From a virus (Duplodnaviria; Heunggongvirae; Uroviricota; Caudoviricetes), in the IMG/VR virus record IMGVR_UViG_3300028413_000003, positions 40,465 through 104,464 of that record: 64,000 bases of DNA, one strand, 5' to 3'. Below the pieces are notes generated by a model. The model was not told the origin of the DNA, searched no databases, and saw only the letters and a program-made list of their open reading frames with translations. Position 1 is the first letter of the stretch. Every line of letters begins with the position of its first letter. Shown piece after piece: positions 306 to 55,702 of this stretch. Position numbers and translations under genes: made by a program.

Positions 306-1415
306 ATGGGACTTAGTATTCTGTTCTTCCTTATTCCTGCACTTGTAGTGATGGGTATTGTAAAACTGTATTTCAACTGGGAATACACATGGAAAGAGTT
401 TGGAGTGCAAGCTGGCGGAACGCTGCTGGTCCTTGTGCTTATCTTTGCTGCTGGCAGCTTTGGACAAACCTCTGACACACAGTTGATCAACGGAGTAGTA
501 ACCAAGCTAGATACGATACAGGAATCATGTCAGAGAGGTTGGCAAAGATCATCTGACAATTTCTGCACAGAATATCGCACTCGGTTTGTACCCGACGGGC
601 AAACCTGCTCGACAAACAGCAACGGGCAGCGCTCTTGTACTACTAATTATAGAACAGAATACAAATCTATTTTTGAATGGGAACGCAGATACTTCCTAGA
701 CTCTGATCTTGACATACGCTTTGAAATTGCAAGAGAAGACAAGCAAGGCAGCACAACACCAGCAAGGTTTGCACAAGTTGCACTTGGAGATCCTGTCACT
801 ACGTCGCAAAGGTACACCAATTATATCCGTGGCGCAGTTGACAGCTTGTTTGCAGAAGACGAGCCAGTTGAGGTGTTGCCCATTGCATATCCGCGCGTTC
901 GAGACTATTACATTGCAAACCGTGTGATATTCACTGGCTACAAGACATCCAGTGCGCTGCACACTCAATGGAACAAAGACTTTGCAGTTGTAAATGCCAA
1001 CATACGCAAAACCGGCGCAAATGCTATTGTAGTGGTAACTGGCGGTCCGCCGAGCTTTGCACTAGCACTAGCACAAGCGTGGGAAGCTCACAACATTAAC
1101 GATGTGGTTACTGTGATCGGAATGGACGGGGATGCGATTAGTTGGGTAGACGTGCGACACTGGAGCAGCAACAGTATTGTTGGGTTGGCCATAGAAAATA
1201 ACATTCTTGCGCTGGATTCACTTGACACTCAGGCAATTGATGCTATAATAGAAGATGCAGTGTTAGAAAACTTCCAACTAAGATCCATGGACGAGTTTGA
1301 GTATCTAGCAGAAGAAATTGCACCACCGATCTGGGCGCTTGTACTAGCAGCAATGACGTTGCTAGTTGTAACACCAGTTATAACTTACATGTTCCATAAG
1401 CATGAAGTATTTTAA
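306..1415 (+). CDS. hypothetical membrane protein (N- and C-terminal hydrophobic segments)
   Basis: 369-aa ORF; hydrophobic N-terminus MGLSILFFLIPALVVMGIV and C-terminal TM LVLAAMTLLVVTPVI. Confidence 0.5.
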   Translation: MGLSILFFLIPALVVMGIVKLYFNWEYTWKEFGVQAGGTLLVLVLIFAAGSFGQTSDTQLINGVVTKLDTIQESCQRGWQRSSDNFCTEYRTRFVPDGQTCSTNSNGQRSCTTNYRTEYKSIFEWERRYFLDSDLDIRFEIAREDKQGSTTPARFAQVALGDPVTTSQRYTNYIRGAVDSLFAEDEPVEVLPIAYPRVRDYYIANRVIFTGYKTSSALHTQWNKDFAVVNANIRKTGANAIVVVTGGPPSFALALAQAWEAHNINDVVTVIGMDGDAISWVDVRHWSSNSIVGLAIENNILALDSLDTQAIDAIIEDAVLENFQLRSMDEFEYLAEEIAPPIWALVLAAMTLLVVTPVITYMFHKHEVF

Positions 1416-1971
1416 AGGAAGTACTATGAAGAGTTTAATAGCCACAGCTATTGTAATTGGCGGAATTGCTGTAATCACAGCAGGAAGTTATATTTCAGCT
1501 TTCAACACTGGCAACAGACTTGAAAATGTTATCATTGCAACATTTCAAGACAACAAGAACGTGCTAGCCAACTATAGCAACACCATTGCCGAAGCTGCGC
1601 AAATTCCAACAATGCAACGAGATGATCTCAGAGACGTGGTAACAGCAGCACTCGATGCACGTTATGGCGACGAGGGATCGCAGGCAATGTTCCAGTTTAT
1701 TCAGGAACAGAACCCAACCCTTGACAGCCAAGTGTATGTAGAATTGCAGCGTATTATCACCGGTGGACGTGAAGACTTTCGTCTAGCGCAGACTCGGTTA
1801 ATTGACCAAAAACGTGTGTACGAAACTGCGCTTGGTTCATTCTGGGGCGGCACGTGGATGCGGATTGCAGGATATCCAAAGACTGATCTAGACGAATTTG
1901 TTATTGTAACAAACTTTCGCACAGAAGAAGCGTTTGACACAGGCGTAGAAGAAGCAATTGAACTTCGATAA
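1402..1971 (+). CDS. hypothetical membrane-anchored protein (possible LemA-like); true start may be ATG 1426
   Basis: 189-aa ORF, N-terminal TM IATAIVIGGIAVITAG; weak LemA-like pattern. Confidence 0.4.
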   Translation: MKYFKGSTMKSLIATAIVIGGIAVITAGSYISAFNTGNRLENVIIATFQDNKNVLANYSNTIAEAAQIPTMQRDDLRDVVTAALDARYGDEGSQAMFQFIQEQNPTLDSQVYVELQRIITGGREDFRLAQTRLIDQKRVYETALGSFWGGTWMRIAGYPKTDLDEFVIVTNFRTEEAFDTGVEEAIELR

Positions 1972-2055
1972 CCCAGACGTTCAATGAATAAACTAGACAT
2001 AGCATTATTATTGTGCTATGTTTATTAGGCACAACCCAACAAAGGCACAGCAAAC

Positions 2056-4194
2056 ATGATTATTAACTCAGCGCCAGCAGACAAGGCAGTCTTTGGCGGA
2101 ATCACTAAGGTTAGTGAATTCAAGATCAAAAATAGCGCAAAGGCATTTGGTATTCTGTCAAGTGGTTTGTATGCAAACAAAATTCGAGCAATCATCCGAG
2201 AACTTAGCTGCAACGCAGTCGACAGTCATGTTGCAGCTGGAAAGCGCAACACACCATTTGATTTGCACTTACCGACAAGGCTCCAGCCGTACTTTGCAAT
2301 TCGCGATTATGGTATTGGCTTGAACCTCGATGATGTTACACACATCTACACCACTTACTTCGAAAGCACCAAAGCCGACAGTAATGACTTTATCGGCGCA
2401 CTAGGTCTTGGATCAAAGTCGCCATTTAGCTACACTGACAGCTTCACCGTTATTGCTATTAAAGACGGCGTCAAGGGCATTTTTAGTGCTTTTATCAACG
2501 ACGACGGTGTTCCGAGTGTTGCTGAGATGGGTGTGGAGAAAACAGACGAGCCGTCTGGTGTTGAAGTAAAATTTGCAGTAACTGACGCTGATGATTTCTG
2601 GCGCTTTAGTACAGAAGCCAAGTCTGTGTTTACATATTTCGATCTTGTGCCAAATCTAACCGGCACCGAAATAGAGTTTAACACGGTTGAATATGAAGGC
2701 AAATGTATTGTTGCCAACGTGTTTTCGCGTAATAGCCAGATGGCCTACGCCAAGTCTACTAACAATGCAATCATGGGCAACATTGCCTATCCGATTGAAA
2801 TTCCAAGCAGTGACCGAAAATTAGGTGACTTGAATTTTGTCAGCAACACTGGACTTGATATCAAATTTGAATTAGGCGAAATTGAATTCCAGGCAAGCCG
2901 AGAAGGACTTCAGTACACTGAATGCACTATTACTAAAATCAAAGCAAAATACAAAGAAATTGCTGATGCATTAGAAGTAACACTGATTGCGGAAATGAAA
3001 TCAATTGAAAACACGTGGGACCGAGTACAATTTTTGAGGAACAAGGCAAAAAACCAATTATGGAGCGGAGTGGTCCAGCACTATATTGACAACAACAAGA
3101 TTCCGTTCTTATTCGGAAATAGATACTATTACAACTCATCCATAAAATTAAATGTAGAAGACATTGCCAAAAAATTCAATGTTGTGTTGCGATCATTCTC
3201 AACAGCCAAAGGGTCTTACGCCAGCGGCGGACTGAGCAAAATTGCAACCGAGAAGAAGGCCGGGTATGGGGGTCTTTGGTTAGTGGAATGCTGCAAAGAT
3301 GTGTTGTTTATTAAAAACACCGACAATGCTCGCATGTGGGAACGCAGCAAATATCATGTCAAAATTGCTTATGAGAAAGGCAAGACGGCATTTGTAATTT
3401 TTGCAAAGAATGCAGACAAGCCAGTTGATGTTGCAGGGTTTTTGGCTGCCATTCACAATCCTCCGGAAAATCAGGTCATTGACGTTACTGATTTAACAAA
3501 GCCTGATACAGTTTCAAGAATGTCAGAAAAGATCACACTGCTTAAAATAGACACATGCCATTACAATAATTCCATGACGTGGAGCGAATGCACAATGTCT
3601 CCAGGAGACATGGATAATACTAAAATCTATTGCTATGTCCCTATTACAGGATTCAAAGGAATTTCTAAGGCAGGCAAAGACATCAATGTTAAGAATGTTT
3701 ACCGTGCCATGAAAGCAAGCGGTCATCCAAAACTGTCAACTGTTGCAATGTATGGGGTACGCAAGACTGATGTCGCCGCAGTAGAAGCTTTGCCTAATTG
3801 GGTGAGATATGAGGACCTTGTAGAAGAAGTACTGGGCGAACTTAAATCCGAAAATTTACTTAGCATGGTGCTTTCACGGGTTGACAAAGATAGAGAATCA
3901 ATCTATTATAATAAGAAGCTTGTTAACATGTTGGACGAAAAAAGTCCAATGCGAGCGTTTTGCAAAAAGCTTCCTGAAGTTCCTGTAGGAGGCGACCGCA
4001 GCTTGTTTGAGCTTTCAAACACAATCGAAAGCTCACTTAACTTAACACTGTTAGAAGAAACAGCGACCAAAGAAATCGAGGGGATCCGCAGTCGTTACTC
4101 AATGATACAACAAATGCAGCGCAGTAGGTACTACGACGAGACTATTGTTGCAGAATATATTAACCTCGTCGATCAACATAAAGGACTAACATAA
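2056..4194 (+). CDS. rIIA: rIIA-like protein with GHKL (Bergerat-fold) ATPase domain
   Basis: N-box IRELSCNAVDS, G1 box DYGIGL, G2 box GALGLGSKS; 712 aa (T4 rIIA 725 aa); immediately upstream of an unambiguous rIIB homologue. Confidence 0.8.
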   Translation: MIINSAPADKAVFGGITKVSEFKIKNSAKAFGILSSGLYANKIRAIIRELSCNAVDSHVAAGKRNTPFDLHLPTRLQPYFAIRDYGIGLNLDDVTHIYTTYFESTKADSNDFIGALGLGSKSPFSYTDSFTVIAIKDGVKGIFSAFINDDGVPSVAEMGVEKTDEPSGVEVKFAVTDADDFWRFSTEAKSVFTYFDLVPNLTGTEIEFNTVEYEGKCIVANVFSRNSQMAYAKSTNNAIMGNIAYPIEIPSSDRKLGDLNFVSNTGLDIKFELGEIEFQASREGLQYTECTITKIKAKYKEIADALEVTLIAEMKSIENTWDRVQFLRNKAKNQLWSGVVQHYIDNNKIPFLFGNRYYYNSSIKLNVEDIAKKFNVVLRSFSTAKGSYASGGLSKIATEKKAGYGGLWLVECCKDVLFIKNTDNARMWERSKYHVKIAYEKGKTAFVIFAKNADKPVDVAGFLAAIHNPPENQVIDVTDLTKPDTVSRMSEKITLLKIDTCHYNNSMTWSECTMSPGDMDNTKIYCYVPITGFKGISKAGKDINVKNVYRAMKASGHPKLSTVAMYGVRKTDVAAVEALPNWVRYEDLVEEVLGELKSENLLSMVLSRVDKDRESIYYNKKLVNMLDEKSPMRAFCKKLPEVPVGGDRSLFELSNTIESSLNLTLLEETATKEIEGIRSRYSMIQQMQRSRYYDETIVAEYINLVDQHKGLT

Positions 4195-4195
4195 T

Positions 4196-5032
4196 ATGCT
4201 TCCATATATGATGCAAGGCAACAACATTGTTGTTGTTGTCAACAACACACCACATACTATTGCTAAAACACACGTGACCTATACCAAAGTCAAAGATGCT
4301 ATCATTGCCGGCGACTGGGAAACTGTGAAGAAGATCATCGATCCAGAAAAGGTTGTACTCGAATACGGCAACGGTCGTGTCGAAGTCCAAGGCGAGAAAC
4401 TGTTCTGGGACGGCAGAGAAATGCACAACGCATTGTCAAAGCGTATGATCGAAATGCTACAAGAAGGATTTCCAATCGAGCCATTAGTTCTATTCATGGA
4501 GAACTTGCAGAGCAACCCAAGTCACCGCGCAGTAAAAGAGCTGTACGGCTTCTTGGAAAAGAATTGTCTGCCTATTACTCCAGACGGTTGCTTTTTGGCG
4601 TACAAGCGCGTAAGAGACAGCTACCTAGACTGTTACTCCGGTACAGTATCAAACAAGCCAGCATACTTGCTGACTGACGAAGAGAAGACTGCCATGGCAG
4701 ACACTGTTTCTGGACGTTTGAAAGAAGTAGAAGTCACACTTGAAAACGACATGACTGTTGTCACAATGCCGCGCAACATGGTCAACGACGACAAAGACCA
4801 GACTTGCTCGGATGGATTGCATTTTTGCAGTGAAGATTACCTCAACAGCTTCGGCGGAGAGCGTATCATGATCCTAAAGATCAATCCTATGGACGTTGTT
4901 AGTGTGCCCAGCGACTACCGCGACAGCAAGGGTCGTACATGCTCCTACACGGTAGTTGGCGAGCTTGGTGTAGATCCAGCTGATGCATTCACTGCTGCTG
5001 TGCAGGAAAACGCAAATACTGCAACCGAGTAA
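4196..5032 (+). CDS. rIIB: rIIB-like protein
   Basis: Block-wise match to T4 rIIB C-terminal half: NDDKDQTCSDGLHFCS / PMDVVSVPSDYRDSKGRTCSYTVV versus T4 NDDDTQTCSGGLHVCS / PRDVVSIPIDYNDAKMRTCQYEVV. Confidence 0.9.
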   Translation: MLPYMMQGNNIVVVVNNTPHTIAKTHVTYTKVKDAIIAGDWETVKKIIDPEKVVLEYGNGRVEVQGEKLFWDGREMHNALSKRMIEMLQEGFPIEPLVLFMENLQSNPSHRAVKELYGFLEKNCLPITPDGCFLAYKRVRDSYLDCYSGTVSNKPAYLLTDEEKTAMADTVSGRLKEVEVTLENDMTVVTMPRNMVNDDKDQTCSDGLHFCSEDYLNSFGGERIMILKINPMDVVSVPSDYRDSKGRTCSYTVVGELGVDPADAFTAAVQENANTATE

Positions 5033-6694: not shown

Positions 6695-7207
6695 ATGGCA
6701 ACTTGTTATGTATTAGTTGGCGCGCCAGCAGTAGGAAAAAGCACTCGCGTAAAACAGATGGTCGAAATGGACCGCGATGCATATGTGTACAGCACAGATG
6801 CCGAACTTGAACTGATTGCACTCGCTTTGGGTAAAACCTACAACGATGTGTTCGAGTCTCAATATAAAAATGCTGTGAAAATTGCAGAAGAAGGATTGGT
6901 GTTTGCTCTCCAAGACAAACATGATGTGATCTGGGATCAAACCAACATGGGTGTTAACAAGCGAGCCGTTATTGTTGAACGTATGAAAAAGAATGCATAC
7001 GATATAATTTGTGAATGCTATTTGCATCCATCCGTGGCGGACGTTGACGACTGGGCCAATTGGCAGAATCGTCTTGTCAGCAGGCCAGGTAAAACAATTC
7101 CTGGATTTGTTATTGCAAACATGACCAAGAGCTTTGTGATGCCCGACTTTACTGAAGGGTTTGATGATATTCGAATATTTGATATGTACGGCGATGCGTT
7201 GCTGTAA
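6695..7207 (+). CDS. polynucleotide 5'-kinase domain protein (T4 Pnk kinase-domain-like, no fused phosphatase)
   Basis: Walker A GAPAVGKST; WDQTNMGVNKRAVIVERMKKNAY resembles T4 Pnk [23 protein letters not shown]; 170 aa, kinase domain only. Confidence 0.6.
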   Translation: MATCYVLVGAPAVGKSTRVKQMVEMDRDAYVYSTDAELELIALALGKTYNDVFESQYKNAVKIAEEGLVFALQDKHDVIWDQTNMGVNKRAVIVERMKKNAYDIICECYLHPSVADVDDWANWQNRLVSRPGKTIPGFVIANMTKSFVMPDFTEGFDDIRIFDMYGDALL

Positions 7208-7224
7208 AAAATTGTTTTTAGCCG

Positions 7225-7253
7225 TTGACTATAGGACTGCTATAGTGTAATAT
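7225..7253 (+). promoter_or_regulatory. sigma70-like promoter TTGACT-N17-TAATAT (followed by TATAAATT)
   Basis: -35 7225-7230, -10 7248-7253; upstream of rnlA ATG 7295 with GGAGG RBS. Confidence 0.5.
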
Positions 7254-7294
7254 AAATTATGCACCGAGTAGTGCTAGAGTTTAATGGAGGCAAC

Positions 7295-7948
7295 ATGTCT
7301 TACAAATTTCCCGAGATACGCACTATCAACGATGTACTTCCGCATATCAAAGGATGTGACGAGTTTATTGTTGCAGAGCGCGACGGCTTTACTGTAATTA
7401 ACTATGCCGTGTCCATGCCAGACACCTTTCCACCAATTGCAGTTGCAGGCGGCAGCGCAAAGATGCGTGAAGAACGCAGCCTGTCCAGCAGGATCAAGCG
7501 CGAATGCCGCGGATTGATATTTGGTGAAGACGGAGAACTTATGTCTCGTCCGTTCCACAAGTTTTTTAACATCAACGAGCGTGAAGAAACACTGTCAAAA
7601 AACATCGACATGACACGTCCGCACACTGTTATGGAAAAAATGGACGGGTGTCTTGATGAAGATAGTATTATTGCAACACCTGATGGTGGCAAAACTATAA
7701 AATTTTTATGTGAAACTAACTATAATGGACTTGTATTAGGGCAGAATTTAAAAAAGCAGATAATGTGGACACCTGTATTGGCATCGGCTATTAAAACCCA
7801 ATGTGATGATTGGTATGAAATAGAATTGACTAATGGGCATATCCTAAAACTTACTGGAAATCACAAAATTTGGTGCACCGATATAAGCGATTATATACGG
7901 GCAGATGAGCTCACTGGGGAAGAAGACCTTCTATTTTTTGAAGAATAA
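7295..7948 (+). CDS. rnlA: RNA ligase 1 N-terminal extein (118 aa) fused in frame to split-intein N-half (99 aa)
   Basis: ECRGLIFGEDGELMSRPFHKFFNINE and TVMEKMDG match T4 Rnl1 ECRGIMFEMDGE...SRPMEKFFNLNE and ILTKEDG (KxDG motif); Cys 7649 begins intein block A CLDEDSIIATPDG, block B GHILKLTGNHKIW; ORF ends at TAA 7946. Confidence 0.8.
   Translation: MSYKFPEIRTINDVLPHIKGCDEFIVAERDGFTVINYAVSMPDTFPPIAVAGGSAKMREERSLSSRIKRECRGLIFGEDGELMSRPFHKFFNINEREETLSKNIDMTRPHTVMEKMDGCLDEDSIIATPDGGKTIKFLCETNYNGLVLGQNLKKQIMWTPVLASAIKTQCDDWYEIELTNGHILKLTGNHKIWCTDISDYIRADELTGEEDLLFFEE
7649..7945 (+). mobile_element. split intein N-terminal half (Int-N, Hint blocks A and B)
   Basis: Cys1 directly after KMDG; TxxH motif; no endonuclease domain; terminates about 100 aa in. 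Confidence 0.75.
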
Positions 7949-8927
7949 GTTGGGGTAGATCAGTACAGTTATTAATTTCATATTCCCATATTTCAATAAC
8001 TGTAAATCCTTTCTTTTCGGCAAGTAATTGTTTCTTTTTATCATTTTCCCAAATATCAGATACTGGTTTATTTTTATTACCTGGATGAGTTACAACGTCT
8101 CCTTCGTTATAAAATATTGGGTTAGCATGCCAGAAATCACCTTGACATTCAATCAATATAGTGCCTATCTTGAAGTCAAATTGTCTATTCCCAATAAAAT
8201 ATGAAAATATATACGATATTCCTAATGAAGCTAGCGCCTCGGCAATTACCGACTCAATAGAATTCATTTTGCCAGAATATTGGTTAAGCCCAGATCTTTT
8301 ACAAGCATTATATTTTTCTGAATCTGTTAAATTAGCCCACCACTTTTTACGGCCAGCACTAATCTTATCACCAAGCGCAGCTCTGTACTCATTAGACCAG
8401 TTTGCTTTTGTTTCTTTCTGCTTCTCAATATTTGTTCTTCGTAGTGTTCCATATTTGGCAAGCATAGTAATATTAATTTTATCCTTTATTTCTTGCGCCG
8501 ATCTGACATTGTCGACCTCATATTTACGTTTTACAGTATCATTTCGTTTATGATATGCAATTGTATCTTTGGAAAGAGCATTTATTGTGCCGTATTTTTC
8601 AAGACAAGTTTTTTTGTATTTTTCTTGAGTTCGTTTTGATCTCGTGGTAGTCTTCTTAGGAATACCTAAGTAATATATAATCTTATATAACGTACTACTT
8701 GATAACCGTTGTATGTTAAAATGATCTAATAAATCCTTAATTGAAAAATCCTGAACAACATACATATTTATTAGGTCATTTTTAAAATCTGACTTGCTTG
8801 TGTTAGAATTATAGCATATAAGATTTATTAAATGTTCCGGTTTGGATAAGCCGTTAGCGCATGTATAAAAATGACTGAACTTTTCTTCTATTTTATCTTC
8901 ACAAACATAACATTTCATAGTTGACAT
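7911..8927 (-). CDS. free-standing homing endonuclease, Vsr-like PD-(D/E)XK fold (EDxHD-type, I-Bth0305I-like), with N-terminal zinc finger
   Basis: 338-aa minus-strand ORF between intein halves; ILIECQGDFWHANP and GFTVIEIWEYE resemble Vsr FIDGCFWHGH / WRVLTVWE; N-terminal CYVCEDK...CANG. Confidence 0.6.
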   Translation of the reverse strand: MSTMKCYVCEDKIEEKFSHFYTCANGLSKPEHLINLICYNSNTSKSDFKNDLINMYVVQDFSIKDLLDHFNIQRLSSSTLYKIIYYLGIPKKTTTRSKRTQEKYKKTCLEKYGTINALSKDTIAYHKRNDTVKRKYEVDNVRSAQEIKDKINITMLAKYGTLRRTNIEKQKETKANWSNEYRAALGDKISAGRKKWWANLTDSEKYNACKRSGLNQYSGKMNSIESVIAEALASLGISYIFSYFIGNRQFDFKIGTILIECQGDFWHANPIFYNEGDVVTHPGNKNKPVSDIWENDKKKQLLAEKKGFTVIEIWEYEINNCTDLPQLILQKIEGLLPQ

Positions 8928-8995
8928 CCTTTATTTCTTCGTGTATGGTATTTATATAAAAACTAGACAAACACCTACTTTGTAAAGGAAAATTT

Positions 8996-9097
8996 GTGAA
9001 AATTGCAAATATTAAAAAAATTAGAAACAATTCTCTCCGATATGACATCCAGACATCTACTAATAATTTTTTTGCTAATAACATTCTTGTGCATAAC
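8996..9097 (+). mobile_element. split intein C-terminal half (Int-C, blocks F and G)
   Basis: GTG start with RBS aaaggaaaa; RYDIQTSTNNFFANNILVHN followed by Ser+1; same reading frame as Int-N ORF. Confidence 0.75.
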
Positions 9098-9928
9098 TCA
9101 ATGATTAGACCATTGATCATTAATGGCGTTGTCCGTCTTGCTACTAAGATGGGGGTAACTGATGTGAGCGAGCAAGCCGAAAGGTACATGCGTACTCGTT
9201 CTAACTACCAAGCAGAAATGCATTGGTTAGAAAAAGCTGTAAAAATGGGAGTTACTCCATTGTTTGAGTTTGTAGCGCCCGATAACCAGATTGTGCTAGG
9301 ATATCGATCTGCTGACCTTGTGCTGCTGGCAATCCGTCATAATCTAACTGGCAACTACTTGGGTCGCCAGAATTCAACACCGGACTCAATTACACAAGTT
9401 GTGTTACATGACTCGGTTGATGGTACGCTGGATGACTACGTTGCCAAGCACCGCAACGACGAAGGTCGTGAAGGGTTTATCATCAGCTTCAACGGCGAGA
9501 TGTACAAAGGCAAGAACGACTGGTATGTGCGTATCCATAAAACACTGGATCGTGTGCGGTTCGATCGTAACATTGTTGCATTGATTGTCAACGAGGATCT
9601 CGACGATGTGATCGGCCAGTTGCCACAAGTAGATGCAGATCGTATCCGCGATTTCGAAGTTCGATTCTGGGATGCGTTTGGTCGCACCGAAGATCGTGTC
9701 AAGGCACTTTATGAAAAAGCTGTAAAATATCCAGATCGTAAGTCGGTTGCTACAAAGTTTATTCCTAAGTTGCAAAACAAGACCGACGCCAGCTTTGTGT
9801 TTCGCTTGCTGGATGGCGACGACATGCGCGAGATGTTATTGCATTATGTATCAAAGCACATCAACACAAATGTACAATGGAAAGCTTGTGCTAAATGGAT
9901 GGAGGTTGCTGATGCTGTCGTGGTTTAA
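8996..9928 (+). CDS. rnlA: split-intein C-half (34 aa) fused to RNA ligase 1 C-terminal extein (about 276 aa)
   Basis: After HN|S the sequence LEKAVKMGVTPLFEFVAPDNQIVLGY matches T4 Rnl1 [26 protein letters not shown]; extein total about 394 aa versus T4 374 aa. Confidence 0.8.
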   Translation: MKIANIKKIRNNSLRYDIQTSTNNFFANNILVHNSMIRPLIINGVVRLATKMGVTDVSEQAERYMRTRSNYQAEMHWLEKAVKMGVTPLFEFVAPDNQIVLGYRSADLVLLAIRHNLTGNYLGRQNSTPDSITQVVLHDSVDGTLDDYVAKHRNDEGREGFIISFNGEMYKGKNDWYVRIHKTLDRVRFDRNIVALIVNEDLDDVIGQLPQVDADRIRDFEVRFWDAFGRTEDRVKALYEKAVKYPDRKSVATKFIPKLQNKTDASFVFRLLDGDDMREMLLHYVSKHINTNVQWKACAKWMEVADAVVV

Positions 9929-10651
9929 ATCTTGGTTTACCGAGCCTGAACCCAACAGGCCGTTTGTTGTATATATACGACAGCATAAAGTTGCTCAATC
10001 AACCACAAGAGAAGAAGCAGAAAAGTACATTCAAGAGATTTTTGAAAAGTCAGACAGTAGCTTTTTAGGAGGATCAGGATGGGGGACTCGTCAGGGTGTT
10101 AGCCAAAAACGCAGACGTAACGCATTTCGAGGACAATGCAAAATCGTTGAAATGTGCAACCTGTGTAACCGAAGGGTTGGCCATTGTGGACAGTGTTGAT
10201 TATCACCTAACTCCTCTTCCTGGATATTGAGAAATTGTGTTTGCAAAATATAATAATGATAAGTATACACGCAAGTTCTATCATTTGTTAGAAAGCGAAG
10301 GATTTGATTTGACGTGGGAACAAAGGCGAACGAATTACAATTTAAAATTAGTGTCGCATAAAAAGAAATCAATTATGACAATATTTTGCTTAAAATACTC
10401 CGGTACATTAGCGTTGTGTGACATCTTAGTAAGAGAATACACACCCAACACCAGAGGTGCAACAATGTACCAGAAGAGATCATTATGGAACTAATTGCAT
10501 TTGTTATTGTTGTTGCAGGCTATGTAATAGCAGACGCGATAATGTTTGTAAACGGTTATCGCAGCCTTTTTTGGAAAGCTCGAACAAAACAAGAGAAAGC
10601 GGTGCGCCGTGCATTTTTTGACAAATTAAACATCGAATGGGATGAAAAACA

Positions 10652-16667: not shown

Positions 16668-17933
16668 ATGGAAAGACATTTAGTAGGCGCCCCGGTACGA
16701 GATATGCGGCTGGGGCGTACTGTCGAAGACCGAGATTGGGTAGTAGTTGGTTCTACACCCGAGCAAATGCTAGCTGACGGTTTTGGACAAGTTGGTGCTG
16801 ATTTTCCTGTATTTTTGCATCCTGAGACCAATGAAGAATATGCACTTGCACGTCGCGAACATAAAACTGGCGAAGGTTACTTGGGATTCACCAGCGATTT
16901 TGGTACAGATGTTACACTGTTGGAAGACTTGGGCCAACGAGACTTAACTGTCAACAGCATGGCCATGCAGAAACTGACCGAAAGTGAATTTGCAATAGAC
17001 ACTGACACCAACGACAATTGGGCGTTCTTTGATCCATATGGTGGCTTGGAAGATTTAGAAGCAAAAGTCCTTCGGCACACCAGTGATGCATTTGCCGAAG
17101 ATCCTGTACGAGTATTGCGTCTGGCGAGATTTCGCGCCAGACTAGGTCCTGAGTGGACAGTTGCACCCGAAACAGTTGCAATGGTTTCAAAAATGGCCAA
17201 GTCCGGTGTTCTTAATGAACTAGTAAGTGAGCGTGTATGGAAAGAAACAAGAAGAGCACTAATGGAGCCTCATGCGCGCCTGTTTTTTGACACACTGTTG
17301 GAAACGGATGCCTTGCATGTGATTTTTCCCGAAGTGTACAAGCTAAAGACTGCACTAGAGGCGCGGCGATGGCACCCCGAAGGCGATGCGTACGAGCACA
17401 CAATGTTGGTACTAACTGCCGCAGTTGATTTTGGCTACGACCTAGAAACGCGATTTGCTGCACTGGTACACGACTTTGGCAAAGGTCTAACGCCTAGAGC
17501 AGCACTGCCCAAGCACTACGGCCATGAAGTCACAGGTGTTGCTGTTGTAGAAAGCTTTGCCAATAGGCTGTCTGTGCCTTCTAATATGCGCAACCGTGCG
17601 ATGAAGACCACAAGATTTCACATGCACATGCACAAGTTAGACTCGTTGAATCCAAAAACGTTTGTAAAAATGTTTACAGAAATGGATGCTTGGAGAAATC
17701 CAGAAGTTGTAGACTTGCTGCTAAGAGTAGGCGAGTGCGACGAACGCGGCAGACTAGGCTGTGAAAATGTAGATGTACAACATTTGCAGAAACTAAAGAA
17801 AGTATTTGATCAAGCTAAAAGAGTTAAGTTTGCTGAGGTATTTTCCAAAGGTGAAACCGATGGCGAAAAGATCAAGGGTGGCATGTATCGTGCTAGAATA
17901 CAAGTTGTTTCGGAGATTAACAAAGATGACTAA
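16668..17933 (+). CDS. cca: tRNA nucleotidyltransferase (CCA-adding enzyme) with HD domain
   Basis: N-terminal LVGAPVRDMRLGRTVEDRDWVVVG (pol-beta NTase head) and HD motif ALVHDFGKG; 421 aa. Confidence 0.85.
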   Translation: MERHLVGAPVRDMRLGRTVEDRDWVVVGSTPEQMLADGFGQVGADFPVFLHPETNEEYALARREHKTGEGYLGFTSDFGTDVTLLEDLGQRDLTVNSMAMQKLTESEFAIDTDTNDNWAFFDPYGGLEDLEAKVLRHTSDAFAEDPVRVLRLARFRARLGPEWTVAPETVAMVSKMAKSGVLNELVSERVWKETRRALMEPHARLFFDTLLETDALHVIFPEVYKLKTALEARRWHPEGDAYEHTMLVLTAAVDFGYDLETRFAALVHDFGKGLTPRAALPKHYGHEVTGVAVVESFANRLSVPSNMRNRAMKTTRFHMHMHKLDSLNPKTFVKMFTEMDAWRNPEVVDLLLRVGECDERGRLGCENVDVQHLQKLKKVFDQAKRVKFAEVFSKGETDGEKIKGGMYRARIQVVSEINKDD

Positions 17934-26856: not shown

Positions 26857-27864
26857 ATGACAATCGGCGGTACAATAGGCAAGTTTACAAACTTACACCT
26901 GGGTCATTTGAACATGTTTATCACTGCATTATCTGTAGTAGATCAACTATATATTATGGTCTCTGGAAATGAAACTGATGTTGTTCCGCTGTCCACACGT
27001 TACAAGTGGTTATGCGAACTATTTGCTGATAACCAAAATGTACACATTATCAAACACATAGACAACATCCCGTCGAGCGAAGTAGACGAAAATGGCACAA
27101 TCATAGACCCAACAGTTTGGGACAAATGGAAGGCGGAGTTTGAACTGCACCTCCCCAAGCTTGATTACTTTGTAAGTTCGGATATGTATGGCAAGAAAGC
27201 TGCAGAGGTGCTCGGTTGCCGATGGTTACCAATTGACCCGCATCGTGAAATGCACCCTATTAGCAGCACAGCAATTAGAGAGGCGCTGTTAGAAAATTGG
27301 AGTTTTATGTCAGCACCTGCAAAGCGTAGTTTTCACAAGAGAGTAGCAGTAGTTGGACCGGAATCAACAGGCAAGTCTATATTAGTTGAAAGTTTTCGCT
27401 TGCGCAACATCGGAACTCCTATTCAAGAATACGGCCGCATGATAACTGAAGTAAAAGAAGAAGTTAACGAAAAAGACTTCGAAGCTATTGTCAAAATCCA
27501 AGACAACTGGGTTAATGAATATGCGTACAAGGCAGAAATGCCAGTTACAGTAACTGACACAGAAGCGTTCACTACTTACTTGTTTTCGCACTTGTACCTG
27601 GACAAGCCGTTGGAAATGGCACTGGAGTACGCAAAGAAGCAACACTTTGATTTGTATATTGTTCTGGCGCCTACTGTTAAGTGGGTACAGGACGGAACCA
27701 GAATTGTCGAAAAACAAAAACAACGTGAATGGTTCTTTGAAGAGATGTTGAAATTTTTAGTTGACAACAACCGCAACTATATTGTAATCAGTGACACCGA
27801 CTTTGTCACACGCACCGAACAGGCGCACGCCTCAGTTCTCAAACTAATTAACAGGGGTATATGA
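26857..27864 (+). CDS. nadR: NadR-like bifunctional NMN adenylyltransferase / ribosylnicotinamide kinase (no HTH domain)
   Basis: GKFTNLHLGH nucleotidyltransferase motif, then Walker A VVGPESTGKS. Confidence 0.7.
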   Translation: MTIGGTIGKFTNLHLGHLNMFITALSVVDQLYIMVSGNETDVVPLSTRYKWLCELFADNQNVHIIKHIDNIPSSEVDENGTIIDPTVWDKWKAEFELHLPKLDYFVSSDMYGKKAAEVLGCRWLPIDPHREMHPISSTAIREALLENWSFMSAPAKRSFHKRVAVVGPESTGKSILVESFRLRNIGTPIQEYGRMITEVKEEVNEKDFEAIVKIQDNWVNEYAYKAEMPVTVTDTEAFTTYLFSHLYLDKPLEMALEYAKKQHFDLYIVLAPTVKWVQDGTRIVEKQKQREWFFEEMLKFLVDNNRNYIVISDTDFVTRTEQAHASVLKLINRGI

Positions 27865-27928
27865 TGTTTACACAGAAAGAAAATGGAAGTTGGATGTGGG
27901 CAAAATAACATATCTTGCCACCTAATAC

Positions 27929-27957
27929 TTGACACACGCTTGTTGCGAGTGTATACT
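27929..27957 (+). promoter_or_regulatory. sigma70-like promoter TTGACA-N17-TATACT
   Basis: -35 27929-27934, -10 27952-27957; upstream of natV. Confidence 0.55.
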
Positions 27958-28007
27958 AAAAGCAAGACATAGAGTTTTGCCTAAACACGCTAAAGGAGTT
28001 TTAGCAA

Positions 28008-29123
28008 ATGAAATACGACTTAATTAACGACACTATACATAGCAAACTAAAAGCCACTACTGCACTATCGGAAAATTCCAAAACAGAAATCCGCTACGAC
28101 GCACTGGTGTTCATTGGCAGGTTCCAGCCATTTCACCTGGGGCACAAAGCAGTGGTTGACGCTGCACTGAAACTGGCAAAAGAAGTGATCCTTGTGCTTG
28201 GGTCCAGCTTTAGTGCAAGAAATACTCGCAACCCATTCACGTTTGAAGAACGCAAGTCGATGATCAAGGCGGTGTATCCACAGGACAATGTCAAAGTTGT
28301 GCCAGTGTGTGATTATCCATACGACGACAACAAATGGGTTGCTGCTGTACAATCTGTGGTGTTCAGCGCAATGAAATACTCCCCCGATCCTCTGCGCATT
28401 GGTCTCATTGGCCACGAAAAAGACGGAACCAGCTTTTACTTGAAAATCTTCCCTACATGGGGCAGCGAAAGTGTTGCCAATGTAGATGGAATTGATGCAA
28501 CACCGATCCGTGAAACTATTTTTGAACACGGTCCTTACCGCGGTGTAGAATTATTTATGTGTGATACCATGCCAGCAGAATCTGCTGATATACTGGACGA
28601 CATTGTTAGAGAATGGGCACACGAAGAATTTGCAACACTGTTTGTTGAATACAGTATGATTCAACAATACAAAGAATCCTGGAAATCCGCACCATATGCA
28701 CCCACCTTTGTAACAACTGATGCAGTTGTAGTGCAAAGTGGACACATTTTATTGGTCAAGCGCAAGCATGCACCGGGTATAGGACTTTGGGCACTGCCTG
28801 GTGGATTCCTTAATCCAGGAGAACGCCTCGAGGCCGGTGCGCTGCGCGAGCTAAAAGAAGAAACAAAAATCAAAGTTCCAGTTCCGGTACTGCGCGGCAG
28901 CATCCGGGCATCAAAGACCTTTGATGATCCATTCCGATCAACCCGCGGCCGCACCATTACAACTGCGTTTTTCATCGACCTCGGGTTTGATAAAACTCTG
29001 CCAAAAGTAAAAGGCAGTGACGATGCAGAACTAGCACGATGGGTACCGTTTAACGAAGTAGACCGTACACAAATGTTTGAGGATCACTTTGCGATTGTTG
29101 ACAACTTCATTAACATCGGATAA
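28008..29123 (+). CDS. natV: NatV-like bifunctional NMN adenylyltransferase / Nudix hydrolase
   Basis: FIGRFQPFHLGH NTase motif; Nudix box GGFLNPGERLEAGALRELKEETKI. Confidence 0.8.
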   Translation: MKYDLINDTIHSKLKATTALSENSKTEIRYDALVFIGRFQPFHLGHKAVVDAALKLAKEVILVLGSSFSARNTRNPFTFEERKSMIKAVYPQDNVKVVPVCDYPYDDNKWVAAVQSVVFSAMKYSPDPLRIGLIGHEKDGTSFYLKIFPTWGSESVANVDGIDATPIRETIFEHGPYRGVELFMCDTMPAESADILDDIVREWAHEEFATLFVEYSMIQQYKESWKSAPYAPTFVTTDAVVVQSGHILLVKRKHAPGIGLWALPGGFLNPGERLEAGALRELKEETKIKVPVPVLRGSIRASKTFDDPFRSTRGRTITTAFFIDLGFDKTLPKVKGSDDAELARWVPFNEVDRTQMFEDHFAIVDNFINIG

Positions 29124-29134
29124 GGAACACAACA

Positions 29135-29464
29135 ATGAAAGTAATTAAACCAGGAAAGTTTGGACACAGCTGGGCTACTGAAGTAACATGTTCTGGCTGG
29201 GGAAATGGCGGCAAAGGTTGCGAAGCTATTCTACAAGTTACCCGCAGTGATTTACGATTTTTTCCTGGTGTGTCTGGTGAAAGTTGGGGCAGCAAAGAAA
29301 GTGCAGTTTCATTCGAGTGCATGTGCTGTGGAAAATTAACCGACCTTGGGCGAGATGATTGGCCCGCAGGTTATACAGATCTTGTAAGATGGACAAAGGA
29401 GTGGCAATCCGCTGCTCCTGAATCAACCTTACCCGAAAGTCCGATTCAAAGAGGATCGGCATAA
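29135..29464 (+). CDS. hypothetical protein
   Basis: 109-aa ORF between natV and nadV. Confidence 0.45.
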   Translation: MKVIKPGKFGHSWATEVTCSGWGNGGKGCEAILQVTRSDLRFFPGVSGESWGSKESAVSFECMCCGKLTDLGRDDWPAGYTDLVRWTKEWQSAAPESTLPESPIQRGSA

Positions 29465-29484
29465 CAACTTAGAGGATTTCTAAA

Positions 29485-30912
29485 ATGAAACATAATATTA
29501 TACTACTATCAGACTCGTACAAGTACAGTCAACCACACCAGTTTCCAAAAGGCACACAGTATGTGAGTTCATATATTGAAAGTCGAGGAGGCGAGGAGAA
29601 CTCAGTGTTCTTCGGCGCGCAGGCGTTGATCAAAGAATATCTAATAGGAGAGGTTGTTACCATTGAAATGATTGATGAAGCAGAAATGATCATCACTCAG
29701 CACGGTGAACCTTTCTATAGAGAACTATGGGACATTATTGTTGAGGAATTCAGCGGTCGTCTCCCAATCGAAATCGAAGCAGTTGCCGAAGGCACATACA
29801 TGCCTATTTCAAACGTACAAATGCAGATCATCAACACTGATCCGCGTTTTTGGTGGTTGCCAGGCTTTTTGGAGCCACTTACACTAAGAGGTGTTTGGTA
29901 CCCTTCGACTGTTGCAACAAAATCACGTAAAATGAAAGCTATCATTGCTCGTGCGCTGGCAACAACCAGCGATGTTCCAGTAATGGATCAGATTATGTTC
30001 AAGCTGCACGACTTTGGAGCACGAGGCGCAACATCACACGAAGCTGCAAAGCTTGGTGGAATGGGTCACCTTGTTAACTTTATGGGCAGCGACACCATTG
30101 AAGGAATTGTAGGAGCAAGACGTTACTATGGCGCAGACATGCCAGGATTTTCAATTCCAGCAAGTGAACACTCTACTATCACAAGCTGGGGCAGAGAAAA
30201 CGAAAAAGCTGCCTACGAAAACATGATCGAGCTATTCGGTGGCGAAGGCAAAATTTATGCATGTGTGAGCGACAGCTACAACATCTACGAAGCTATTAAG
30301 ATGTGGGGCGAACTAAAAGAAAAGATCATCGATAAAGGTGGCACATTGGTTGTTCGGCCAGACAGTGGGGATCCGTTGACTGTTCCAATTGATGTTGTAG
30401 AACTTCTAATGGAAGAGTTTGGATTTACTGTTAATTCAAAAGGCTTTAGAATACTGCCGTCCTACATTCGTGTAATTCAAGGCGACGGTATCAGTGAACA
30501 CAGCTTGCCACAATTGATCAATAACTTGATCCGGGCAGGACTGAGCATTGATAATATTGCATTTGGAATGGGCGGGGGATTGCTGCAATTAGTCAACCGC
30601 GATAGCTTAAAGTACGCCATGAAAGCAAGCGCAATTATGGCATCAGATGGCGAGTGGACTGACGTCTTCAAAGACCCAATCCACGGAGGTAAGACTTCAA
30701 AGAAAGGTCGCCTCGGACTTATATACCAAACCGGCGTCGGCGGCGGTAGTTTTCGTACTGTTCCTAAATCTGTTGCAGACAAGAAAGGCAACTTGTTACG
30801 CCCTATTTTCCGCAACGGAAAGCTGTTAATTGAAGATACTTTTGACCAAGTGCGCGAACGTGCTGCACTTAAAGAGGAGGAATACCTTGATGTTGAATTT
30901 GAAAGATACTAA
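29485..30912 (+). CDS. nadV: nicotinamide phosphoribosyltransferase (NAMPT)
   Basis: 475 aa; N-terminal LLSDSYKYSQPHQFP...YVSSYIESRGG typical of NAMPT/PBEF. Confidence 0.85.
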   Translation: MKHNIILLSDSYKYSQPHQFPKGTQYVSSYIESRGGEENSVFFGAQALIKEYLIGEVVTIEMIDEAEMIITQHGEPFYRELWDIIVEEFSGRLPIEIEAVAEGTYMPISNVQMQIINTDPRFWWLPGFLEPLTLRGVWYPSTVATKSRKMKAIIARALATTSDVPVMDQIMFKLHDFGARGATSHEAAKLGGMGHLVNFMGSDTIEGIVGARRYYGADMPGFSIPASEHSTITSWGRENEKAAYENMIELFGGEGKIYACVSDSYNIYEAIKMWGELKEKIIDKGGTLVVRPDSGDPLTVPIDVVELLMEEFGFTVNSKGFRILPSYIRVIQGDGISEHSLPQLINNLIRAGLSIDNIAFGMGGGLLQLVNRDSLKYAMKASAIMASDGEWTDVFKDPIHGGKTSKKGRLGLIYQTGVGGGSFRTVPKSVADKKGNLLRPIFRNGKLLIEDTFDQVRERAALKEEEYLDVEFERY

Positions 30913-40460: not shown

Positions 40461-40535
40461 TGGAGGACGTAGCAGAATGGCGATGCATCAGACTTTGAAT
40501 CTGATTTTTGGGAGGTTCGATTCCTTCTCCTCCAG
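40461..40535 (+). tRNA. tRNA-Gln (anticodon UUG), copy 1
   Basis: Acceptor TGGAGGA/TCCTCCA, stem TCAGA/TCTGA, loop CTTTGAA; 3' CCA not fully encoded. Confidence 0.6.
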
Positions 40536-48174: not shown

Positions 48175-49518
48175 ATGGAGAATCCAATGCGCAAACAACC
48201 CCAAGACATCATCAAACAGATAGAAGAAACCAGTGGCAGGCTTGACAAGCAGGCAATTATTACAACTGCACTCGACGACAACATAGCAGAGTTCTTTGAA
48301 GGTCTGCGTTTTACGTTTGACAAGATGGTTACGTTTGGCGTTAAGAAAGTGCCCGAGAAGACAGCATCGGGTGGCCAAGGACTAGCATGGCCAGCATTCA
48401 AAGACTTAGCAACTATGCTGTACAAGCGCGAGCTTACAGGACACGCTGCAAGAGACGCTATTGCACTTTGCATGGATGTAGCAACACAGGAGCAATGGAA
48501 CGGCTGGTATCGTCGCATTCTTATCAAAGACATGCGAGCAGGGTTTAGCGAGAGTACTGTAAACAAGGCTTGCAAAGCAGCAGGACGTGCTGACTGGGGA
48601 GTTGATGTATTTGCATGTCAGCTTGCACACGACAGCGCAAACCACGCAAGCAAGATGGTTGGTAAAAAGCAGATCGAAGTCAAACTTGACGGCGTTAGGT
48701 GCAATGTTGTTATACATGACGTTAATGGCGACAAGATTGAGATATTTAGCCGCAACGGCAAACAGTTTCACAACTTTGATCATATTATCGATGAAATCCG
48801 CGGGGTGGTAAAAAATAACCCAACCCCTTATCCAGTTGTGCTCGATGGCGAAATAATGAGTGCTGATTTTCAGGACTTGATGAAGCAATTGCAGCGCAAA
48901 GACGGCAAGAAAGCAACAGATGCTGTACTGCACTTGTTTGATACTATTCCGCTAGATGCTTTTGTACTAGGAGAGTGGAATAAGACACAGACATATCGTA
49001 GTGCTATCACCAAAGCGTGGGCGGACTTGCATGCTGCAGAAATGCCGCATGTACAGGCACTGGATTGGGAAGAAGTTGACTTGGATACCGAAGTAGGCCA
49101 GGCCCGCTTTGTAGAAATTAATGCCAAGGCTGTTAAGGAAAAGTACGAAGGTGTGATGATCAAAGACCCCGATGCACCATACAAGTGCAAACGAGTGCAC
49201 GCTTGGTTGAAGTCCAAGCCATTTATCGAAGTTACATTGACAATTACTGGATTTGAAGAAGGAACTGGGCGAAATGAAGGAAGACTCGGGGCTATCATAT
49301 GCGCTGGGGAAGATGACGGGAAAGATATTGTGGTCAATTGCGGCGGCGGCTTCTCTGACGCTCAGAGAGCCGACTTTTGGAATAATCGTAATAGCCTTCT
49401 TGGTCAGTTGGCTGAAATACGTGCAGACGCTGTGACACAAAACCAAGACGGCACATACAGCTTGCGCTTCCCAAGATTCAAAACATTCAGGGGATTTAAA
49501 GTCGGAGAGAAAATCTAA
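48175..49518 (+). CDS. ATP-dependent DNA ligase
   Basis: Adenylation motif I EVKLDGVRC (KxDGxR); 447 aa. Confidence 0.85.
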   Translation: MENPMRKQPQDIIKQIEETSGRLDKQAIITTALDDNIAEFFEGLRFTFDKMVTFGVKKVPEKTASGGQGLAWPAFKDLATMLYKRELTGHAARDAIALCMDVATQEQWNGWYRRILIKDMRAGFSESTVNKACKAAGRADWGVDVFACQLAHDSANHASKMVGKKQIEVKLDGVRCNVVIHDVNGDKIEIFSRNGKQFHNFDHIIDEIRGVVKNNPTPYPVVLDGEIMSADFQDLMKQLQRKDGKKATDAVLHLFDTIPLDAFVLGEWNKTQTYRSAITKAWADLHAAEMPHVQALDWEEVDLDTEVGQARFVEINAKAVKEKYEGVMIKDPDAPYKCKRVHAWLKSKPFIEVTLTITGFEEGTGRNEGRLGAIICAGEDDGKDIVVNCGGGFSDAQRADFWNNRNSLLGQLAEIRADAVTQNQDGTYSLRFPRFKTFRGFKVGEKI

Positions 49519-55639: not shown

Positions 55640-55666
55640 TGACTTCCCTTGTAAATAGTGTATACT
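55639..55666 (+). promoter_or_regulatory. sigma70-like promoter TTGACT-N16-TATACT
   Basis: Its -35 overlaps the start codon of the divergent GIY-YIG gene; drives uvdE. Confidence 0.5.
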
Positions 55667-55702
55667 GTATTTATACAATTGCTTGCAAATACGGAAAAAA
55701 AT

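Follow-up and report, generated by a model that had tools for sequence, protein, structure and literature searches.

A probable mobile fractured-gene cassette, comprising an NrdJ-1-type split intein and an inverted EDxHD homing endonuclease gene, in motif I of a phage RNA ligase gene

Fractured genes were defined by Dassa et al. (2009; NAR 37:2560; PMC2677866) from 26 loci representing eight DNA synthesis and repair enzymes, which include gp41, IMPDH, DnaE, NrdA, NrdJ, DNA ligase and terminase. In that layout the N-terminal and C-terminal halves of a split intein (IntN and IntC) and an endonuclease gene interrupt a conserved enzyme gene, the three coding regions share a strand, and the 3' end of the endonuclease gene often overlaps the start of IntC; the reported halves are 88-105 and 33-54 amino acids (aa) long. 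RNA ligase is nowhere mentioned in that paper. Here we describe what is very probably a mobile fractured-gene cassette in motif I of rnlA, the RNA ligase 1 (Rnl1) gene, of a T4-like phage. The locus occupies 7295-9928 of a stretch of 64,000 nucleotides (nt), positions 40,465 to 104,464 of IMG/VR record IMGVR_UViG_3300028413_000003; this whole stretch is called the window, and coordinates are counted from its first letter. The cassette consists of a split intein resembling NrdJ-1 and, between its halves on the opposite strand, the gene of an EDxHD (Vsr-like) endonuclease. An original prediction, made by a model from the letters and their open reading frames (ORFs), had drawn attention to the locus.

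Three further systems serve for comparison. NrdJ-1 (PDB 8ubs and 9omb), a member of the 2009 set, resides in a class II ribonucleotide reductase; its N-half is acidic and its C-half basic (PMC2677866), and it counts among the split inteins with exceptionally fast splicing (PMC7090010). I-Bth0305I, the prototype EDxHD homing endonuclease (Taylor et al. 2011, PMC3239194; PDB 3r3p), has its gene inside a group I intron of the phage-borne recA gene and carries NUMOD and helix-turn-helix motifs. In the T4-like Aeromonas phage Aeh1, a free-standing endonuclease gene, mobE, divides the nrdA gene into two pieces that are translated separately (Friedrich et al. 2007; Crona et al. 2011, PMC3045599); no intein is involved, and the fragments assemble non-covalently.

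At the present locus the ligase is encoded by two ORFs that share a reading frame. The N-fragment ORF (7295-7948, plus strand; 217 aa) begins MSYKFPEIRT, follows the Rnl1 N-terminus to VMEKMDG, and continues in frame into IntN, CLDEDSIIATPDG, to end with LLFFEE and a stop codon. ATG 7295 is likely its true start, because GGAGG lies 5 nt upstream and homologues begin at the same residue (M[HN]YKFPEIRT). The C-fragment ORF (8996-9928, plus strand; 310 aa) starts at a GTG located 6 nt behind a Shine-Dalgarno-like AAGGA (8985-8989, plus strand; read from the sequence); its translation begins (M)KIANIKKIRNNSLRYDIQTSTNNFFANNILVHN, which is IntC, and goes on as SMIRPLIINGVVRLATKMG into the remainder of Rnl1. 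Exactly 1047 nt separate the N-fragment stop from this GTG. The gap holds 29 stop codons in the ligase frame and 23 and 13 in the other two plus-strand frames, so that a joining of the fragments by read-through or a single frameshift is ruled out. On the minus strand the gap is occupied by the endonuclease ORF (7911-8927; 338 aa from Met1), which meets the IntN ORF tail-to-tail in a 3'-3' overlap of 38 nt (7911-7948), and whose start is 77 nt from that of IntC, across a divergent intergenic region. Positions 7200-10000 are 100% identical in six contigs from independent assemblies of different samples (JGI, ENA, Logan), which argues that the locus is not an assembly artefact; the N-fragment protein is also recorded on contigs of up to 251 kb. 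A near-identity DNA search of 50,697 phage records gave no match, and the source is an uncultured phage.

The two exteins are recognizably pieces of one enzyme. The N-extein (7295-7648, plus strand; 118 aa, ending VMEKMDG, motif I) matches Pfam RNA_lig_T4_1 at an expect (E) value of 2e-13, over profile positions 1-56 only, and PHROG 562 ("RNA ligase and tail fiber attachment catalyst") at 1.2e-17. The C-extein (9098-9928, plus strand; 276 aa, with Ser+1 at 9098 in SMIRPL, FEFVAP, and a stop at 9926-9928) matches PHROG 562 at 1.7e-46 over profile positions 107-368. Against T4 Rnl1 structures the E values are 3e-5 for the N-extein, which aligns to 2c5u through KEDG with its KMDG opposite, and 2e-15 for the C-extein, which aligns from the FEFVAP region onward. 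We take the KMDG lysine at the split to be the counterpart of the adenylylated Lys99 of T4 Rnl1. The insertion point lies exactly between the Gly and Ser of motif I (KMDG-S), two residues after this lysine. When G118 is joined in silico to Ser+1, the result is a continuous Rnl1-family protein of 394 aa and 45.4 kDa with an intact KMDG-S; it has a single RNA_lig_T4_1 (PF09511) match over the full profile (residues 70-261, 93.7 bits, cut-off 28.3), and its alignment to RNA ligases that lack an intein, from phages of Ruegeria, Roseobacter, Caulobacter and Synechococcus, is unbroken, with identities of 34-38%. Closer intein-less rnlA alleles were found in metagenomes (P0122/L016 and P0007/L018): both have an unbroken MEKMDG-SMIRPL, and the DNA at the joined junction reads ATGGAAAAAATGGACGGG/AGCATGATTCGG, where the slash, here and below, marks the junction. 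P0007 is the closest intein-less relative of the N-terminal part, with 72% identity over the N-extein. By its sequence, the ligase is a divergent member of the Rnl1 family, about 35-38% identical to its nearest counterparts in cultured phages. The original prediction's account of both ORFs, an Rnl1 N-terminus running through KxDG into a 99-aa intein half and, 1047 nt on in the same frame, a GTG-initiated ORF with a 34-aa intein half, Ser+1 and the FEFVAP-containing remainder, is thus borne out by the ORFs, the Pfam matches and the T4 Rnl1 alignments.

The 99 residues of IntN (7649-7945, with the stop at 7946-7948; plus strand) open with Cys1 in CLDEDS and include the block B motif LTGNH, and the 34 residues of IntC (8996-9097, plus strand) end with RYDIQTSTNNFFANNILVHN (ILVHN; the end is also given as NNFFANNILVHN). 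Scored separately, the halves reach 22.5 and 17.0 bits, under the Pfam Intein_splicing (PF14890) cut-off of 35.8, as expected of halves; joined, they reach 37.8 bits, and TIGR01445 (intein_Nterm) gives 29.6 bits against a cut-off of 24.5. NrdJ-1 is the best structural-database match to both halves. Each half alone matches 8ubs (IntN, E 1.6e-3; IntC, E 5e-5), and the joined halves do so at 6.7e-14 over residues 11-133, with the split at the same alignment position. The block F/G sequence YDIQTST.NFFAN.ILVHN is nearly identical in the two inteins (18 of 20 residues over YDIQTST.NFFAN.ILVH), and the acidic-N, basic-C polarity is common to both, the net charges here being -10 for IntN and +4 for IntC. 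The differences are the host protein, an RNA ligase rather than a ribonucleotide reductase, the low identity of IntN outside the conserved blocks, and the native G/S extein junction.

The residues that splicing would use are all present at the locus: Cys1, the TxxH of block B (LTGNH), the terminal His-Asn (VHN) and Ser+1. NrdJ-1 likewise has Ser at +1. Among IMG/VR relatives, 29 of 29 distinct IntN sequences begin with Cys and 29 of 29 distinct IntC sequences end in His-Asn, and the +1 residue is Ser in 14, Cys in 11 and Thr in 4. The claim that this is a genuine split intein stands, as the joined halves pass both profile cut-offs and share the NrdJ-1 split; the evidence supports a naturally split intein of NrdJ-1 type.

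The minus-strand ORF was predicted to encode a 338-aa Vsr-like nuclease with a zinc finger. The protein is there, though it most likely starts at Met4 (8918), since homologues begin MKCY or MICP at that point, an AAGGA stands 8 nt before it and this is the start that gene callers choose; the gene would then span 7911-8918 on the minus strand and encode 335 aa. From its N-terminus the protein has a CxxC..H..C motif, helical DUF7487 repeats and an EDxHD catalytic domain at the C-terminus (7914-8270, minus strand; about residues 220-338), with predicted catalytic residues E225, D251, E260, H267 and D296. Pfam reports DUF7487 at 6e-10 together with a weak Vsr match, PHROG places the protein in "homing endonuclease" families, and several of the 47 relatives found by database search are annotated as very-short-patch-repair endonucleases. 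An alignment of 31 homologues has D251, E260, H267-A-N-P and W314 invariant, G263 and W266 nearly so, D296 in at least 90% of the sequences, and E225 in most. The putative zinc-finger-like motif C6-x2-C9-x9-H19-x3-C23 (8859-8912, minus strand) follows a CxxC...H...C pattern that belongs to the majority consensus of the same 31.

A single-sequence search of the PDB with this protein gave nothing meaningful, and the I-Bth0305I and Vsr matches appear only with the 31-sequence profile. With it the best match is 3r3p, the I-Bth0305I catalytic domain (1e-5), followed by E. coli Vsr, 1cw0 (8e-4). D251 falls on Asp196 of 3r3p (Ala in the crystal) and D296 on Asp222, two of the residues that define the EDxHD family (PMC3239194); the E/D/H/D set and the extra acidic residue at the position of Vsr Phe62, a feature of the family, are both present. 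An AlphaFold2 model built from a 29-row alignment (predicted local distance difference test score, pLDDT, 86) is helical over the N-terminal two-thirds, with an alpha/beta domain at the C-terminus, and presents the CxxC...H...C region as a beta-beta-alpha unit (pLDDT about 80-87). Foldseek ranks 3r3p_B and 3r3p_A first for this model (E 2-3e-4, probability 1.0, template-modelling score, TM(target), 0.78), then Vsr (1cw0, 1vsr). The window protein thus shares with I-Bth0305I the Vsr-like fold, the E/D/H/D set, the order of a helical, putatively DNA-binding N-terminal region and a C-terminal nuclease, a phage origin and an association with self-splicing elements. It differs in that no NUMOD family is reported for its N-terminal region, where DUF7487 "KYG.xN" helical repeats and the CCHC zinc-finger-like motif are found instead, and the nuclease domains are only about 20% identical. 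Sequence profiles and the model together support an EDxHD homing endonuclease of the I-Bth0305I/Vsr-like type, for which cleavage is predicted, and in its fold and motifs the original prediction holds up.

The three-gene layout with the opposite-strand endonuclease is also present in three other Rnl1 lineages (L012/L013, L001 and L002-L005). Between the four lineages, identity is 53-67% for the N-extein, 29-62% for IntN, 40-50% for the endonuclease, 62-74% for IntC and 32-50% for the C-extein. All four retain the catalytic residues, the charge polarity (IntN -5 to -10, IntC +2 to +4), and an insert of low GC content; the IntN/endonuclease tail-to-tail overlap is 35-53 nt in these four and 32-53 nt in every other inverted RNA ligase locus. 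At the window locus the exteins have a GC fraction of 0.45-0.47, against 0.35 for IntN, 0.32 for the endonuclease gene and 0.26 for IntC, and only two islands below 0.34 occur in the 64 kb, the rnlA insert and another minus-strand endonuclease gene.

Beyond Rnl1, a scan of IMG/VR with the endonuclease profile gave 80 loci, which were searched for inteins with profile hidden Markov models made from the four Rnl1 intein halves. The same intein type flanks the endonuclease in 33 of the 80. In 26 of these 33 all three genes are co-directional, as in the published layout; the seven with an inverted endonuclease are L021-L026, with RNA ligase hosts and 3'-3' overlaps of 32-53 nt, and L057, a DNA-ligase-like host without overlap. 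Once spliced in silico, the hosts are assigned by Pfam to the Rnl1 family (L023, inverted; L029 and L031, co-directional), to the PF09414 RNA ligases (L027, L034 and L072, including an HNH-fused form and an Rnl2-like one with T4_Rnl2_C), and to the NAD-dependent (L038) and ATP-dependent (L056) DNA ligases; the L091 host resembles NrdJ. The host junction is almost always at motif I (K-x-(D or H)-G/C), with KMDGEN/C and EK/C...HN/TDGQN as variants.

Several loci merit a separate description. The cassette is co-directional and at motif I (KxDG/C or KVHG/C) in loci that include L027, L028, L034, L036, L038, L041, L052, L056, L065, L072 and L074. In L066 (505-3009) and L077 (337-4322) it lies between K and TDG (EPTEK/C...HN/TDGQN); the spliced L066 host (429 aa) has no Pfam match and may represent a nucleotidyltransferase or ligase family not yet described. 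On two contigs of about 1.3 kb that end before any downstream part, L014 (564-1193) and L015 (P0024), the Rnl1 N-fragment ends VMEKMDG/CLAEETLILCSDQ. The P0024 IntN looks clearly unlike that of the window lineage, yet the insertion point is the same, and the sequences suggest a second split-intein allele at the motif I site of rnlA.

How does the window locus compare with the fractured genes of 2009? A conserved enzyme gene is broken, its joined flanks restore a continuous homologue, and a split intein with halves of complementary charge accompanies an endonuclease gene in a phage and metagenomic context; IntN, at about 99 aa, and IntC, at about 34, are within the published ranges, and here too control elements seem to travel with the endonuclease. 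On the other hand, the host is an Rnl1-family RNA ligase, outside the eight enzyme types, the endonuclease gene is on the opposite strand, the overlap is a 3'-3' one with IntN rather than one in which the endonuclease gene runs at its 3' end into the start of IntC, and IntC begins in a divergent intergenic region. The predicted match to the published layout therefore stands for the intein and the endonuclease as parts (PMC2677866), and fails for the same-strand rule and the type of overlap. A literature search found no split intein in an RNA ligase and no inverted endonuclease in a fractured gene, which, as its coverage was incomplete, is weak evidence of novelty. Because the intein and endonuclease families are known ones, with a new host gene and a departure from the same-strand arrangement, we regard the locus as a variant: a fractured gene with a new host gene and an inverted endonuclease, not a categorically new system.

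What would such a cassette do? The two separately encoded precursors, computed at 24.8 kDa (118-aa extein and 99-aa IntN) and 35.9 kDa (34-aa IntC and 276-aa extein), would associate through their charge-complementary intein halves and fold into a HINT domain, and trans-splicing by way of Cys1, the TxxH block, His-Asn and Ser+1 would yield an active ligase. Unspliced fragments would be inactive, because the break adjoins the adenylylated lysine. The endonuclease would cut the intein-less rnlA of co-infecting relatives near ATGGAAAAAATGGACGGG/TCAATGATT, the predicted empty target being the joined extein junction CCGCACACTGTTATGGAAAAAATGGACGGG/TCAATGATTAGACCATTGATC or its natural counterpart in the L016 and L018 alleles, and recombinational repair would then copy the whole 1.45-kb cassette into the cut allele. 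That the cassette is foreign and mobile is argued by its low GC content in four lineages and by the presence of the same family in other ligase genes.

The weakest part of this scheme concerns expression: the ligase fragments would be made from early, sigma-70-like promoters and the endonuclease from a late promoter set back-to-back with that of the C-fragment, and late endonuclease transcription would converge into the IntN gene. Upstream of the N-fragment lies a putative sigma-70-like motif, TTGACT-17-TAATAT (7225-7253, plus strand; 9 of 12 in a consensus scan), and TTGAC(A/C/T)-16/17-TAxxxT occurs at the same place in L012, L001 and L002. A second putative motif, TTGACA-17-TATGGT (8921-8949, plus strand; 10 of 12), points at the C-fragment, its -35 element overlapping the alternative endonuclease ATG (Met1, 8925-8927) just upstream of Met4; TTGACA-17-TATGAT/TATATA is found in L012 and L002 as well, so that three of the four Rnl1 lineages have a plus-strand motif here. 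Facing the other way is an exact copy of the T4-type late-promoter consensus, TATAAATA (8949-8956, minus strand), putatively a promoter, 30 nt upstream of the Met4 start. This octamer precedes the endonuclease ATG by 22-35 nt in L012, L001, L023 and L025 and by 22-33 nt in three of the four Rnl1 lineages, and it lies upstream of the endonuclease in five of seven inverted RNA ligase lineages; it is found before 6 of 64 related endonuclease genes, where 0.87 would be expected. In L001 the region between the endonuclease and IntC (7649-7800) is twice as long, 152 nt, and includes an imperfect palindrome, TGTGACGGTTCGCAAACTGTCACA, which is absent from the other lineages and could be an operator or terminator.

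Several points weigh against the cassette reading or parts of it. We infer splicing, endonuclease cleavage and ligase activity alike from the sequence. The promoter scan deals in consensus matches only, with 19 found against 11.9 expected, and across the 64-kb window TATAAATA is not significantly enriched (5 found, 4.06 expected). As to the enzyme, the spliced ligase scores 146.6 bits with NCBIfam TIGR02308, the T4 RnlA equivalog, below the cut-off of 242.25, and its match to the tRNA-specificity C-domain, PF20819, is sub-threshold (16.3 bits, cut-off 27, E 0.013). A role in tRNA repair, deduced from the family and the neighbouring genes, is for these two reasons not established. What helps it is context: a P-loop kinase gene (AAA_33) with weak polynucleotide-kinase similarity directly upstream of rnlA (6695-7207), a tRNA nucleotidyltransferase gene (16668-17933), and PNKP-type phosphatase and kinase genes near homologous Rnl1 loci. 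The homologous C-fragments of L001 and L002 carry precomputed PF20819 matches, that of L002 being marked weak. Finally, the divergence of intein and endonuclease between lineages roughly parallels that of the exteins, which fits vertical residence as well as it fits homing.

This last point invites a different reading, that the cassette is a fixed relic, its endonuclease inactive for homing or domesticated, inherited vertically with rnlA. The identities of intein (29-62%) and endonuclease (40-50%) do follow those of the exteins (32-67%), and an otherwise unrelated rnlA with a near-identical cassette was not encountered. However, no lineage has a disrupted endonuclease ORF, D251, E260 and H267 are invariant, the low GC content has been kept, and empty target alleles still circulate in related phages. 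Moreover, close relatives of both the endonuclease and the intein are found in several different ligase families, which requires mobility in the past. We consider a relic unlikely, though it deserves to be kept in mind.

Might trans-splicing be conditional, and serve the phage as a checkpoint on its RNA-repair capacity, as the original prediction proposed? The break within a catalytic motif means that the precursors must be inactive, separate promoter-like motifs for the two fragments could in principle allow their stoichiometry to be regulated, and IntN holds three extra cysteines. Yet the sequence bears no mark of conditional splicing, NrdJ-1, the nearest characterized relative, is fast and constitutive (PMC7090010), and a selfish element explains the cassette fully. 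The occurrence of the same cassette family in unrelated ligases and in NrdJ also argues against a function specific to Rnl1. We therefore do not retain the claim of a built-in post-translational checkpoint on tRNA-repair capacity, and hold conditional splicing of this kind to be very improbable.

It is also conceivable that the fragments work without splicing, the intein halves acting as a non-covalent assembly domain after the manner of Aeh1 NrdA/mobE, or that the ligase is dead and its loss tolerated. Intein-less fractures of the Rnl1 family do exist, split by GIY-YIG genes at about residue 206, so that a split Rnl1 evidently can persist without splicing. But Cys1, TxxH, His-Asn and the +1 nucleophile are kept in the four lineages and in 29 of 29 relatives, even though IntN identity drops to 29%; a free chain end inside motif I, beside the catalytic lysine, is unlikely to be tolerated; and the exteins are still 32-67% identical and free of stop codons. 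The Aeh1 model fits the GIY-YIG-split relatives and not the window locus, which has a complete split intein, and we give this reading slightly less credence still than the checkpoint. Pseudogene status is likewise rejected, in view of conservation across lineages. An artefact, be it a mis-assembly, an ordinary intein whose in-frame endonuclease was frameshifted, or a group I intron, has nothing to recommend it beyond the prior caution due to metagenomic contigs and can practically be dismissed, given 100% identity in six independent assemblies from three pipelines, the 29, 23 and 13 forward-frame stops in the gap with a complete endonuclease gene and its own ribosome-binding site on the other strand, the recurrence of the layout in diverged lineages, and intein halves that are above profile thresholds and continue the reading frame of the exteins, something not required of an intron.

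The intein-less fractures belong to a broader pattern. A second break point, behind about residue 206 (LLAVRxNxTGEYLxIx) and without an intein, is seen in many Rnl1 relatives (L019, L020; P0005, P0006, P0008, P0009, P0011, P0013-P0015, P0021-P0023, P0026, P0039, P0044, P0059 and P0071). In L019 (4001-5982) a 206-aa N-fragment comes first, then an opposite-strand gene for a 221-aa GIY-YIG homing endonuclease, which shares 8 nt with the 3' end of the N-fragment, and then an Rnl1 C-fragment of 187 aa. This RNA ligase is encoded as intein-less "genes in pieces", in analogy to Aeh1 nrdA/mobE. The L018 product (P0007; 221-1066) stops at 234 aa, where an opposite-strand ORF overlaps the 3' end of the gene at the contig edge; this may be a further endonuclease insertion site in rnlA.

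What evolutionary steps might account for the cassette family as a whole? To return to the mobile cassette, one tentative scenario, on balance doubtful, is that a single family of NrdJ-1-type inteins and DUF7487-EDxHD endonucleases has colonized, by ectopic homing across an entire enzyme superfamily, the homologous motif I position (KxDG/) of at least five covalent nucleotidyltransferase families (Rnl1, Rnl2/PF09414, the ATP-dependent and NAD-dependent DNA ligases, and the unannotated K/TDG protein) and also NrdJ, and that in the Rnl1 branch the inverted endonuclease gene couples late endonuclease expression to shut-off of the N-fragment. The spread over hosts, and both endonuclease orientations, are seen directly in the IMG/VR loci. 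In the Rnl1 branch, inversion would have set an early C-fragment promoter back-to-back with a late endonuclease promoter, and late endonuclease transcription would run antisense into the IntN gene, shutting off synthesis of the N-fragment.

The rest of the window is in keeping with a T4-like phage, as predicted: rIIA and rIIB are present (306-5032), the rIIA product being merely 30-41% identical to those of cultured T4-like phages. Nearly all genes are on the plus strand. They include a cluster for NAD salvage (NMNAT-like proteins, NUDIX, NAMPT; 26857-30912), an intact ATP-dependent DNA ligase gene (48175-49518) and a gene for a tail-fibre protein of 1884 aa (58105-63759). A second homing endonuclease gene (54875-55753, minus strand), GIY-YIG and SegE-like (PHROG 314, 7.5e-40; Pfam SegE_GIY-YIG), occupies the other of the two low-GC islands. 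At its 5' end it overlaps a UvdE UV-endonuclease ORF (55658-56824, plus strand) at the start listed for that ORF, and on this 5' side (55668-55675) the minus strand carries TATAAATA for the only time in the window apart from the copy at the rnlA locus.

What, then, does the locus add? RNA ligases can be added to the enzymes with known split-intein fractures, with the insertion right at the adenylylation motif; our understanding of phage RNA repair is left unchanged. The same-strand rule is not obligatory, as several diverged phage lineages stably keep an endonuclease gene that is inverted, has its own divergent control region and overlaps its neighbour tail-to-tail. At least 29 distinct natural pairs related to NrdJ-1, which differ in their native junctions and have Ser, Cys or Thr as the +1 residue, could widen the toolbox of fast orthogonal split inteins. 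The distribution of the cassettes suggests that one intein and endonuclease family is specialized on motif I of ligases, of RNA and of DNA, and it makes this family well suited to work on how homing elements move from one paralogous target to another.

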